The position numbers were made by a program, and so were the translations under genes. Below the pieces are notes generated by a model. It worked only from the letters and a program-made list of their open reading frames with translations, did no database searches and was not told the DNA's origin. DNA of 52,680 nt, counting the filler, from Basidiobolus ranarum (lineage: Eukaryota), in assembly GCA_040143965.1 (NCBI GenBank). It is 2 parts of 2 records of this genome, joined end to end, with 100 filler letters (N's around TTAATTAATTAA, not from the genome) between each part and the next. Parts side by side here need not be neighbours in the genome. Positions count along the whole stretch, not along the records: positions 26,440 to 52,680 come from JASJQH010000133.1; 1 more part is not named here. One strand, written 5' to 3'. Positions 29,051 to 31,771 of this stretch are shown here, one piece after another (position 1 is the first letter of the stretch; each line of letters begins with the position of its first letter).

Positions 29051-31771
29051 ATGCCTCTGTCTAACTGTCAGGAATGCAAGTACGATGAGAATAGTTATTG
29101 GGTACCAACCATGGTTATTAAAGGAACTCGATGTGTTCTGATGAGTAAGATTGAGAATTATATCTCAGGCACTTTCCAAGTGGAGCATGATGGCCATCCA
29201 ATTCCTCTTATCACATTAAATCATGAAATGTAAGTTATTAAAATACATGGCTATTCTGACGAAATAGTGTGTCAAAATAATATTAATTCTCGAATTGATC
29301 GATTTCCTAGTGCACATCCTAGAAGGATCAAGTATCAACCAGATTGCGTGCTTACAATCGTAAATACACCTAGAATAGCCACTCCAGCGACCATCATAGG
29401 TAATTCAGACTATTCATCCATCGACCAGGTAAAAGAGGAACCAGATATGGTGGTAGTAAAGAATAGGATACGCCAGTCTGTGGACTACAAAGCCTTATCT
29501 CCCAATGCTCAAGGTAGCATTATGGTTGCCGTCGATAAATTTCTGACTATGAAGAGACTTTCGAAAGTCAATGAAAATGGTGTCATCAACGCCGGTGCTC
29601 CCATTGTGAATAATGGTTCGACTGGTGATTTTCCTGAATGCATGATGTCTCCTGGCAATAAAGAGATGATAGAAATTCTTGCCAAAATTCAAGAAGTCAT
29701 TGAACAAAACAAAAAAACACATCACCAAAATGAGAAGATACACGAGCAAAATGGGCAAACACATCAGCGACTAGCTCTTCTTGATAAAAAGATGACCGCT
29801 TTGTTAACACAGAGCTACGAATTGCACGAATATCCTATCCCAAGAATGTTTATCATTCTGCCCGTTGACGTACATCCAGTCAACCCGGCTGCCATCTTTA
29901 CTACCAAGTACCGCCTCTATTTTCTGTGTGAATGTGGCGAACACACAGAATCCCAAACAGCCTATCGTGGTAGTAAGCACGCAGTCCATATCGCTCTTCA
30001 TAAGGGATATGATATATCTAAGCCAAAAGAGTTTTATGCTAAGTATGGCCCATATATGCTGTATCTACTGAGAGCACTTCGGTTTGGCCTACAAGTTGCT
30101 GGTGTTTCGATACCAGCATTCTCAAAGAATAGTGAAAGCGATAACGGACTTGACAGTCTAATTGATATTACACAAAAAACTTTGGACGCTTCCATAACGT
30201 TTCTAGACACCGAGTTGTCCAACATCACTGCCTTGAGAAATGATGAGAATGGACAAGAAATTGATGTATCTGGAGAAGAGCGCTTGCGCCATCTAGAGGC
30301 ATTAGAAGGGGCAGATCTGCGACAGTTGGAAATGTTTATTAAACGGAATGATAGGGACAAAGTACTTGGTAATCTATATAGGATCACCACCGAAAAAGGT
30401 CACGTCAAGTGGGTTTGTCTAAGCCATTATCGTATCAACTACCAGGAAGTAGCTGAGAATCAGTTTAGGAATATTATCCATGTCCAAGGTGGAGATTATG
30501 ATGAGCATTATGGAAAGGTGGTTCTTACGTTGACATCGGCTATCTTGGTTAAAGAGTTCTCAGCTGCGTTAGTTCAAGCCAAACAATTACAAGAGTTAGA
30601 TATTACTTTTATATATAAGTGGCAGGCAAGTGATCTTAAGGTGCTTGCTGATGCTATTCATATGACAACCATTCGGTCTTTGGCCCTGGATGTTTCCAAC
30701 AGGGATTTCGGAGGATTCAATCAGAGAGCAAGTGCTCTCCGAAATATCATGAGCAACAAGCAATTGCAGACAATCAAATTGAAAGTCGATGATTGGTTCA
30801 TTGAGCGCGGATTGATGTCCATCAAGGATCTGTCTCATGTCAAAGTCTTAGAATTCGGAAATTACTCATTTGGAAGCGACAGAGAAAGACACTGGATTCA
30901 ATCAATGCAGGCAATAACGAGTGCTTGCCCATTGTTAGAGCGAATCAAATTTAAAAACATTACAATTTCCCGGAACGGTGCCTTAAGTCTAAATATTTTA
31001 TTTGATCGCTGTGGTTTACTTGTGCATGAATATGACAGAAGCAACATATCGGTTTCTCGACAAGATATTCTAATAGAAGCGGGTCTATCAGTAATAGAGG
31101 AGATGACTGAGTTGCAGATACGTAACAATGCTCATATTATTGATGTGTTGGAGAGACAAGCACGAGATGGCGATTTCCGGCTGGAAAAACTGGGATTGAC
31201 ATGTGGTCGTGGTCTATCAGATTTAGAAGTGGGAAAGATAGCAAAGTTTATGAGAAGACTAAAGTTGACTTATCTTGAACTGAGTATAGGCGATTGCAAT
31301 GTCTTACCGATATTAAAACGAGTAGACTATTCATTGTTAACTACGTTTAAGCTTCGAGGGACGATCAATGAAACCATTTGGGAGGCCCTGGACGATACTT
31401 TAAAGGAGGATTCCATGGTGAAGGAACTAACGCTGTCAAATACAAGCGATATATACACAGACAAGGGTATGCTCTCTGGAATCATATCTAGAATAGCCTT
31501 CAAGAGCCTTTACATACACAACTGTAGAGGAATAACTGGCGAAGAATGGGCAAGGATTCTATCTACCATGGATTTATCCCAACTATCATTTCTTTATATC
31601 TCGTGCACACAGTTTGGAGATGCGGCAGTGAGCAGTTTAATCCATCGCCTTTCCGAAGCTGAATCGCTTTCTCATTTGATCTTACTTGATACCCAAATAA
31701 CCACTTCATCGTTCAAAAATCTCAAGACTGTCCTTAACCAGACTCATCCAAATATTATCTATGAGTTTTAG
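29051..31771 (+). CDS. LRR-array paralogue 1 (N-terminal domain, coiled coil, CECGEH domain, RNI-like LRR); exons 29051-29229 and 29311-31771, 879 aa
   Basis: A phase-2 GTAAGT...CTAG intron is conserved in all paralogues. Motifs ELHEYPIPRMFIILP, YFLCECGEH, LEGADLRQL and GNLYRITTEKGHVKWVCLSHY, then LxxLxL repeats. Confidence 0.85.

Follow-up and report, generated by a model that had tools for sequence, protein, structure and literature searches.

A tandem array of four genes in Basidiobolus ranarum

We analysed a stretch of 52,680 nucleotides, filler included (hereafter the window), from the fungus Basidiobolus ranarum (GenBank assembly GCA_040143965.1), in which positions 26,440 to 52,680 come from JASJQH010000133.1. 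Between 29.0 and 43.1 kb the window carries an array of four tandem genes, visible as four intact open reading frames (ORFs) arranged head to tail on the plus strand (29267–31771, 33204–35351, 36247–39126 and 40417–43137), each with a conserved core domain ahead of leucine-rich repeats (LRRs). Scanning all six frames of the window with the family profile recovers exactly these four copies of the core and zero fragments. A deposited B. ranarum protein of 879 amino acids (P0003) is 100% identical to the first ORF over the query region; copies 2 to 4 are 56–59% identical to copy 1 over their full length and 66–75% identical in the core. Residue numbers count from the ORF start at 29267, and those of the deposited protein are higher by 45. 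The genes, and the main parts of gene 1, are as follows.

29051–31771, plus strand: gene 1, encoding the 879-residue deposited 'RNI-like protein' P0003 (placed by tblastn on the window)
29051–29229 and 29311–31771, plus strand: exons 1 and 2 of gene 1, separated by a GT..AG intron at 29230–29310 (splice sites read)
29654–29818, plus strand: long helix, a probable coiled coil, residues 130–184 (a helix at residues 2–55 of a 305-residue query in the AlphaFold2 (AF2) model)
29777–30532, plus strand: core copy 1, Roco-tail-like domain (from the paralog alignment and profile comparisons)
30527–31768, plus strand: ribonuclease-inhibitor-type LRRs of gene 1 (from the match of the four-paralog profile and from relatives with Pfam LRR_6)
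32812–35351 (start approximate), plus strand: gene 2, an 821-residue deposited protein, core at 33351–34097
36367–39126, plus strand: gene 3, a 919-residue model, core at 36676–37419
40510–43137, plus strand: gene 4, an 875-residue model, core at 40708–41466

The encoded proteins begin with a variable N-terminus, followed by the long helix (residues ~130–184), the core (~185–420) and LRRs that run from about residue 421 to the C-terminus. The initial annotation, made from the sequence alone, had placed a conserved core at 29800–30440. This span corresponds to residues 179–391 of the ORF at 29267 and contains every motif that was quoted for it, and the motifs are indeed present in all four copies, collinear within a core of about 240 residues. 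ELHE..PIPRMFIILP, YRLYFLCECGE[HF]T, HIA[LF]H[EK]GY and LGNLYRITTE.GHVKWVCL.HY occur in every copy exactly. Minor variation is seen at the end of the hydrophobic stretch, which is identical up to ...RFGLQ and then reads VAGVSIP, VGDISIP, ITGLSIP or VAGVAIP, and in the motif LEGADLRQL, which is exact in copies 1 and 4 and becomes LEEADLRHV in copy 2 and LEGADLRHL in copy 3. Two AF2 models were obtained (mean predicted local distance difference test score, pLDDT, 74.8 and 65.0). The core is predicted as a small sheet of short strands (FIILP, YRLYFLC, YDI, LYRIT and VKWVC) with packing helices, and a helical insert separates strands 3 and 4.

The LRRs of the window proteins are weak when taken alone (Pfam LRR_6, E 0.21; no match in a single-sequence search) and are recognised only with a profile. 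A profile of the four paralogs (positions 493–754) matches ribonuclease inhibitor with E 5.9e-5 and the LRRs of NLRP1 with E 0.0065, and Pfam LRR_6 matches in relatives are strong. Neither the ORFs nor the deposited proteins P0003 and P0011 have a Pfam match to Roc (PF08477), COR-A or COR-B (PF16095, PF25497). The core had been described as standing without Roc-COR and on the N-terminal side of the LRRs, which is correct.

The core resembles the tail of bacterial Roco proteins

The initial annotation had also pointed to a motif series (PR-F / L-CE / G-Y / G-LR-L / G-L-R / W-C-H) found after the COR domain of bacterial and invertebrate Roco GTPases, and had suggested profile comparison as a check. 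For bacteria the resemblance is borne out, and the matches lie in regions that follow COR-B. A core-only profile (A4), made from the four window copies and 38 metagenome loci, was compared with 401 cyanobacterial genomes. One match (E 6.4e-10, profile positions 83–227) falls in a frame of 1079 amino acids and a second, weak match (E 0.0059) in a frame of 1113 amino acids; the remaining 26 are short, with E ≥ 0.0047. Both matched frames contain LRRs, Roc, COR-A and COR-B and then about 245 residues without a Pfam family. In the 1079-residue frame the LRRs are followed by Roc (338–453), COR-A (508–643), COR-B (666–811) and the unannotated tail, and positions 25–226 of the fungal profile align to residues 860–1055 with 40–41 bits.

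When the tail was used as a query, 49 proteins were recovered. All 49 contain Roc, COR-A and COR-B (precomputed Pfam), all that are named are cyanobacterial, and the tail ends no more than 16 residues from the C-terminus in 47. Comparison of the fungal core with 48 of these tails by hhalign (one was dropped because of partial coverage) gave 99.55% with E 2.4e-23 over 200 columns. Sixteen tails cut from genome loci gave 98.7% (E 2.9e-16, 174 columns) and six Chloroflexota tails 99.4% (E 5.5e-21, 173 columns), whereas the reversed and five column-shuffled controls reached at most 0.8% (E ≥ 0.07). The similarity begins ahead of the core, since the last ~20 residues of the fungal long helix align with the helix that precedes the bacterial tails. 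With one tail as query, the domain was found in 17 of 401 Cyanobacteriota genomes; it is also present in 8 of 381 genomes of Chloroflexota (the phylum of the Promineifilaceae metagenome-assembled genome, MAG) and in 4 of 381 of Pseudomonadota (the phylum of the Hyphomicrobium MAG). Roc, COR-A and COR-B precede the tail in all five Chloroflexota frames that were checked. Applied to bacterial tails, the fungal hidden Markov model (HMM) scored 62.4, 58.1, 51.9, 44.7, 44.1, 26.8 and 11 bits, and 46.7 bits on one Pseudomonadota tail.

The suggested motif series proved to be the conserved skeleton of the fungal and bacterial groups. When 42 fungal rows were aligned jointly with 48 cyanobacterial ones (the latter from what we call subfamily 1), the columns shared at 94–100% are P192, F195, P199, L217, C221, H241, G247-Y248, G348, L351-R352, L354, L358, D362, G368, L370, T375, G378, W382, C384 and H387; E188 and a basic residue at position 272 are also common to both sets. 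The resulting collinear order, P-x-F...P, L-x-C, G-Y, a hydrophobic helix with Lys, G-x-x-L-R-x-L, D, G-x-L, G and W, is visible in a second bacterial subfamily as well. This subfamily consists of 13 cyanobacterial tails, including the match with E 0.0059, and one from Chloroflexota, and is linked through the tail HMM with E 1e-16 to 1e-23.

A convergent origin, or a chance match of short motifs, might be proposed because the identity between fungal core and bacterial tails is only about 20% and both single-sequence and pattern searches missed the link. We regard this as extremely improbable in view of some 200 collinear columns scoring 99.4–99.55% against controls of at most 0.8%, the independent matches of the fungal HMM in three phyla (62.4, 58.1, 51.9, 46.7 and 41 bits) and the preceding helix that is also held in common. 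Judged from these profile alignments, the fungal core is almost certainly homologous to the bacterial Roco tails.

The domain belongs to an unnamed family, for which 'orphan' is a fair term and which we here call the Roco tail. Bacterial LRR-Roc-COR-A-COR-B proteins end with it: it makes up their final ~240 residues, immediately behind COR-B. In Basidiobolus and in Mortierellaceae, the long helix and the alpha/beta domain occur without the GTPase and are fused upstream of ribonuclease-inhibitor-type LRRs. A position after COR-B at the end of the protein is thus true of the bacteria and not of the window; it is the architecture that differs, not the domain. By their sequence, the four fungal genes are not Roco proteins, with which they have the tail domain alone in common.

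Several further observations concern the bacterial tails. In subfamily 2 (L220–L228, L230–L233, L234 and L244) the central helix is more hydrophobic and uncharged, and three of the four conserved Cys/His residues described below are lost. A tail that seemed to stand alone in a 341-residue frame of one Pseudomonadota genome was rejected as such, as remnants of Roc and COR-A lie upstream in other frames and point to a decayed Roco gene. In this gene (L246, G965:C3:440310–443933) the tail is intact in a 309-residue ORF, remnants of the Roc P-loop and of COR-A are found upstream, and the tail has a 'D..SWNPLD' stretch like that of the fungi. At the end of COR-B in L214, L215, L234–L239 and L246 there is a Cys-rich stretch, C-P...C and then C-x-x-C, followed by a conserved 'LL.G'. 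This stretch at the junction of COR-B and tail may be a small zinc ribbon.

A Cys-His-Cys-His tetrad and possible metal binding

The initial annotation had suggested that invariant Cys and His residues of the core could bind zinc. Only four such residues are common to the fungi and to cyanobacterial subfamily 1.

29927–29929, plus strand: C221 (C266 in the deposited protein), tetrad member 1; Cys in 42/42 fungal and 48/48 bacterial rows
29987–29989, plus strand: H241, tetrad member 2; His in 48/48 bacterial subfamily-1 tails
30416–30427, plus strand: C384-x-x-H387, tetrad members 3 and 4; in 47/48 and 48/48 bacterial tails, at a strand end and helix start in the AF2 model

Across 323 fungal domains, C221 is kept in 316 (six of the other seven are gaps), H241 in 323, C384 in 321 and H387 in 320, and the six Chloroflexota tails outside subfamily 2 have all four residues. 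The fungal domains add C223, H226, H245, H379 and H187, so that nine Cys/His positions, together with E222, are kept there at 88–100%. In the bacterial tails the loop with C223 and H226 is deleted (48/48), the spacing between C221 and H241 is 7–8 residues, position 379 is Asp in 38 of 48, position 245 is variable, and a Cys is found at position 191 in 47 of 48.

This distribution bears on whether the core might be an enzyme, for instance a metal-dependent hydrolase or nuclease, or a Cys/His peptidase, with catalytic Cys, His and Glu residues. The nine Cys/His positions and E222, among them an H-x3-H (H241 and H245) present in 323 of 323 fungal domains, would suit such a role, and TIR, caspase, trypsin and GT4 are usual at the C-terminal position of Roco proteins, as presented in the available text of Kaur et al. 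2021 (PMC8195603). However, H245, C223, H226 and H379 are not kept in the bacterial tails, subfamily 2 is without H241, C384 and H387, few polar residues are common to the three groups, and neither Pfam nor Foldseek gave a match to any enzyme family or fold. We consider an enzymatic core quite unlikely. The loss of three tetrad residues in subfamily 2 implies that the fold does not depend on the metal site, should there be one, and it makes a shared catalytic role unlikely.

Two ligand pairs, a Cys and a His in a loop and a C-x-x-H at a strand-helix junction, are the pattern that would be expected of a structural zinc site. Metal binding by C221, H241, C384 and H387 is plausible and would probably be structural; on the strength of their conservation we lean slightly towards these four residues forming a structural metal site, with zinc the most likely metal. 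The suggestion of zinc binding is thereby narrowed: it stands for the four residues common to the fungi and the main bacterial group, and does not extend to subfamily 2, from which three of the four are absent.

The hydrophobic segment

The most hydrophobic part of the core had been read as a hairpin that could insert into membranes. It consists of just one stretch, some 23 residues long.

30041–30118, plus strand: hydrophobic helix, residues 259–284 (maximum Kyte-Doolittle 19-residue mean, KD19, 1.31; pLDDT 87–91)

The window copy has a KD19 of 1.31. Values for the bacterial tails are 1.06 (subfamily 1) and 1.49 (subfamily 2), and one Mortierella-type copy reaches 1.72; the usual cut-off for a transmembrane segment is 1.6. 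Two basic residues lie within the segment. One of them, at position 272, is Lys in all 48 bacterial rows; among the 42 fungal rows Lys prevails there (88%), with Arg in the window copy.

One could envisage a membrane-attacking module whose hydrophobic segment inserts after activation, in the manner of HeLo or MLKL N-terminal domains. The values of 1.72 and 1.49 and the rank of the segment as the most hydrophobic in the core would agree with this, as would weak matches to a membrane transporter model in 11 of 42 members (best E 0.013). However, one segment of ~23 residues is too short for a hairpin, KD19 in the window copy and in subfamily 1 is under 1.6, the basic residue at 272 is kept inside it, and the segment is the best-predicted AF2 helix of a globular model. 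Insertion as a hairpin is not supported, and we judge a membrane-attacking role very unlikely. A buried core helix is the simpler reading of the model.

Searches against known families and folds

Pfam, PADLOC and NCBIfam gave no above-threshold match for the core in 42 core sequences, with scattered sub-threshold hits. Sequence searches of the PDB with the fungal core and the bacterial tails yielded nothing meaningful, and no chain of a Roco or LRRK protein. At E ≤ 0.001, Foldseek found no match for either AF2 model in the PDB, nor for the one model compared with BFVD.

The only Pfam model to arise on the core is FIIND (PF13553), with a weak local likeness in the beta-hairpin region only. It scored 14.8–16.2 bits against a gathering threshold of 25.8 (E 0.0082–0.023) in 4 of 42 members, all of them window paralogs, and was treated as chance. 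A PAS-domain hairpin (PDB 3icy, E 0.049, 56 residues) is a short beta-hairpin resemblance and nothing beyond that. Reading the last hairpin and helix as an HNH-like beta-beta-alpha unit was rejected, position 379 being Asp in 38 of 48 bacterial tails, and look-alikes in the ESM Atlas had best scores of 0.84 and 0.82, under the useful range. PF27087, which is found on many relatives, is an LRR family (LRR_TMOD-LMOD) and does not cover the core. Pattern scans gave 34 matches in bacterial and archaeal genomes and 24 in viral contigs, of which none was confirmed, and they missed the bacterial relatives.

Distribution and architecture of the fungal family

An exhaustive profile search of a library of 1.84 billion proteins found 1312 representatives (50% identity clusters) at E ≤ 0.001, 992 at ≤ 1e-10 and 570 at ≤ 1e-30. 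Word-indexed searches gave 1067 matches of similar length, of which 120 are listed, and 75 longer ones. Among the 195 matches listed, every named relative comes from Mortierellaceae (Mortierella, Linnemannia, Podila, Dissophora, Gamsiella, Haplosporangium, Gryganskiella, Benniella and Entomortierella) or from B. ranarum itself, and the others are metagenome proteins. A scan of metagenomes gave 203 confirmed loci, of which 80 were retained. Tandem arrays are seen in the window and on one metagenome contig of 38 kb, which holds three of these loci, and are therefore common.

The usual architecture in the family is helix, core and LRRs. The repeats after the core are Sel1 in 2 of 63 scanned members and Kelch in one long relative, and one relative has an SH3 domain. 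In the precomputed Pfam lists of the 195 matches listed, where many rows carry no Pfam entry at all, there is no Roc or COR, and NACHT occurs once, in P0263, where ARM-NACHT precedes the core and the core lies between NACHT and the LRRs. Some relatives of odd architecture, including this sole NACHT-containing one, may be fused gene models. Of 314 fungal-type relatives, 15 have two full cores in a single predicted protein (for example P0006, P0007, P0010, P0012 and P0123–P0127); such proteins could be genuine tandem-domain products, or gene models in which neighbours have been fused. In the tree described below, the paired cores are sisters in P0255 and P0010 and are not sisters in P0006, P0007 and P0253.

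Selection and origin

Pairwise ratios of nonsynonymous to synonymous substitution rates (dN/dS) range from 0.07 to 0.21 for the core (six pairs) and from 0.16 to 0.25 for the LRRs; dS is saturated. Purifying selection acts on both, and the core is the more constrained of the two. With this constraint and the 1312 representatives, the conservation of the core goes well past anything that chance would give. From their sequences, the four genes are old paralogs that appear to be functional.

A quick maximum-likelihood tree was made of 87 domains, comprising six from Basidiobolus, 65 other fungal-type domains picked from 308, and 16 bacterial domains as outgroup. The fungal rows form one clade (Shimodaira-Hasegawa-like approximate likelihood ratio test, SH-aLRT, 98), as do the six Basidiobolus copies (100), and the Basidiobolus clade is nested in a clade of 13 rows (97) with Mortierellaceae-type rows. 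This nesting is compatible with transfer from one fungal lineage to another and also with old paralogy and loss, to be read with caution given the quick method and three long branches.

Gene models and genomic context

Genes 1, 2 and 4 are preceded by a conserved first exon, which encodes about 60 residues, including a C-x-x-C and several His, and is followed by a short intron. No Pfam family matches it, and none was detected ahead of gene 3 at E ≤ 0.01. The same exon is also present in the B. ranarum paralog P0009 and in one relative from outside Basidiobolus (P0182). Genes 3 and 4 have an extra LRR block of ~120 amino acids (alignment columns 705–820) that repeats neighbouring LRR units and is absent from genes 1 and 2.

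29051–29229, about 32812–32976 and about 40106–40264, plus strand: exon-1 stretches of genes 1, 2 and 4 (exon-1-like upstream of gene 4)
1386–1973, 5911–6945, 9686–10420, 12431–12907 and 43730–44362: flanking ORF pieces, with Pfam matches to response-regulator receiver, MBOAT_2, ABC1 kinase, mitochondrial carrier and GDPD

The neighbours are housekeeping genes, and the genomic context of the array is ordinary for a fungus. G+C falls to 0.32 at 26–28 kb, immediately upstream of the array.

A possible function in recognition

The best overall explanation is, we think, that a detached Roco tail probably serves as an output or effector module in an LRR family that resembles NLRs (nucleotide-binding and leucine-rich repeat receptors) and is devoid of an NTPase. 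The fungal proteins would be NLR-like receptors without a nucleotide switch. Their variable LRRs would bind a ligand or hold the protein closed, and the conserved helix and tail would act as the output part, through self-association or through a downstream partner. The tail sits at the variable end of bacterial LRR-GTPase-COR sensors, which makes the helix and tail the most likely output part. As few polar residues are common to all three groups, assembly or partner binding is favoured over catalysis. A prediction of a two-copy complex of helix and core scored 0.02, in a run where the partner's own fold was uncertain and the supplied alignment was not used, and this value speaks neither for nor against self-association.

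The initial annotation had called the core a candidate effector domain. This agrees with the place of the tail in bacterial Roco proteins: the available text of Kaur et al. 2021 (PMC8195603) describes the C-terminal place of LRR-AP-GTPase-COR proteins as a variable effector position with at least 24 domains. The term itself goes further than this agreement of position and is best kept as a candidate description. By this analogy we tentatively propose that the core acts as the output or effector of a conflict or recognition system.

Several points weigh against the explanation given above. The tail has no functional annotation in any organism, and the core and tail have no match to a Pfam, NCBIfam or PADLOC family, in the PDB or by Foldseek. 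The AF2 models are only moderate in confidence. The analogy to NLRs is loose, as the fungal proteins are without an NTPase. Gross pairwise dN/dS, with its saturated dS, gives no sign of positive selection in the LRRs, and subfamily 2 keeps C221 alone of the tetrad and ends in W-V-H-x-Q-F.

Instead of serving in immunity or conflict, the proteins might be ordinary scaffolds, for example substrate receptors or regulators, whose core docks on a cellular machine and whose LRRs bind cargo. Purifying selection on core and LRRs and the housekeeping neighbours would be in keeping with this, and the LRRs of some relatives match plant F-box-associated LRR families (PF24758, PF23622 and PF07723). However, no F-box or other docking domain has a Pfam match in the window ORFs or the deposited proteins. 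In addition, massive lineage-specific expansion, tandem arrays and swapping of repeat type are typical of recognition families, and elsewhere the domain occurs only at the variable end of bacterial Roco sensors. Ordinary scaffolds are in our view unlikely, and an output module in an NLR-like LRR family is the explanation that we retain.

It is conceivable, if improbable, that the helix and tail are a new zinc-stabilised executor of cell death or signalling, common to bacterial Roco immune sensors and to a class of NTPase-less fungal receptors with more than 1000 members, acquired from bacteria and later passed between fungal phyla (Mortierellomycota to Basidiobolus). If true, this would be a new trans-kingdom immune effector fold with a standing comparable to that of TIR or HeLo.

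Comparison with known systems

Neither the domain, nor its link to Roco tails, nor the large NTPase-less fungal family appears to have been described, as far as Pfam, the PDB and the literature searched extend. Literature on LRR proteins of Mortierellomycota and Basidiobolus and on AP-GTPase, COR and Roco proteins gave no description of the fungal family or the tail, and no such tail is discussed in the available parts of the CtRoco preprint and a 2019 Roco review. The text of Kaur et al. 2021 (PMC8195603), as far as available, yielded no mention of this tail, which their source data might list under some name.

The present analysis names and delimits a domain that is absent from Pfam (a local copy, and 38.x lists on relatives) and from the PDB, and that is spread over bacterial Roco proteins of at least three phyla and a fungal family with more than 1000 representatives. 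The fungal proteins offer a small, GTPase-free eukaryotic counterpart to the orphan C-terminal end of bacterial LRRK2 homologues that would be easy to express, and they make an old question, the output of bacterial Roco proteins, more testable. The Cys-His-Cys-His tetrad is a concrete handle for mutation. The family is also a candidate class of non-NTPase LRR receptors in early-diverging fungi, where innate-immunity-like systems are hardly described.

Like NLRs of fungi and animals, the window proteins combine a conserved non-repeat domain with LRRs of the ribonuclease-inhibitor/NLRP type, and the family shows large lineage-specific expansion and tandem arrays. In contrast, NLRs have NACHT or NB-ARC, for which Pfam gives no match in the proteins of the four window genes. 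The fungal NLRs of Dikarya rarely use LRRs. The sharing of modules between bacterial conflict systems and NLR-like proteins of fungi is a known theme. It is also treated, on a trans-kingdom scale, in the available text of Kaur et al. 2020 and Kaur et al. 2021 (PMC8195603).

The prokaryotic AP-GTPase (Roc)-COR counter-invader proteins, as described in the accessible text of Kaur, Burroughs, Iyer and Aravind 2021 (PMC8195603), follow the same logic of a variable LRR sensor and a variable terminal module, with TIR, DRHyd, caspase, trypsin, FGS, GT4 and effector-associated domains (EADs) named at the C-terminal position. The bacterial relatives of the core have exactly this architecture, whereas the fungal proteins are without the GTPase switch.

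The closest likeness is to the tails of bacterial LRR-Roc-COR proteins, deposited as 'COR domain-containing protein' (for example P0315 of Elainellaceae and P0336 of Acaryochloris thomasi). These tails of ~200–240 residues match the fungal core in the order of motifs, in the preceding helix and, in the main subfamily, in the tetrad. In the bacteria the domain comes last, behind N-terminal LRRs of the 'typical' LRR_8 kind, Roc, COR-A and COR-B, whereas the fungal core lies near the N-terminus, without a GTPase, and is followed by ribonuclease-inhibitor-type LRRs. The fungal copies also have a longer loop between C221 and H241, with extra Cys and His residues, and about 45 more residues after H387.

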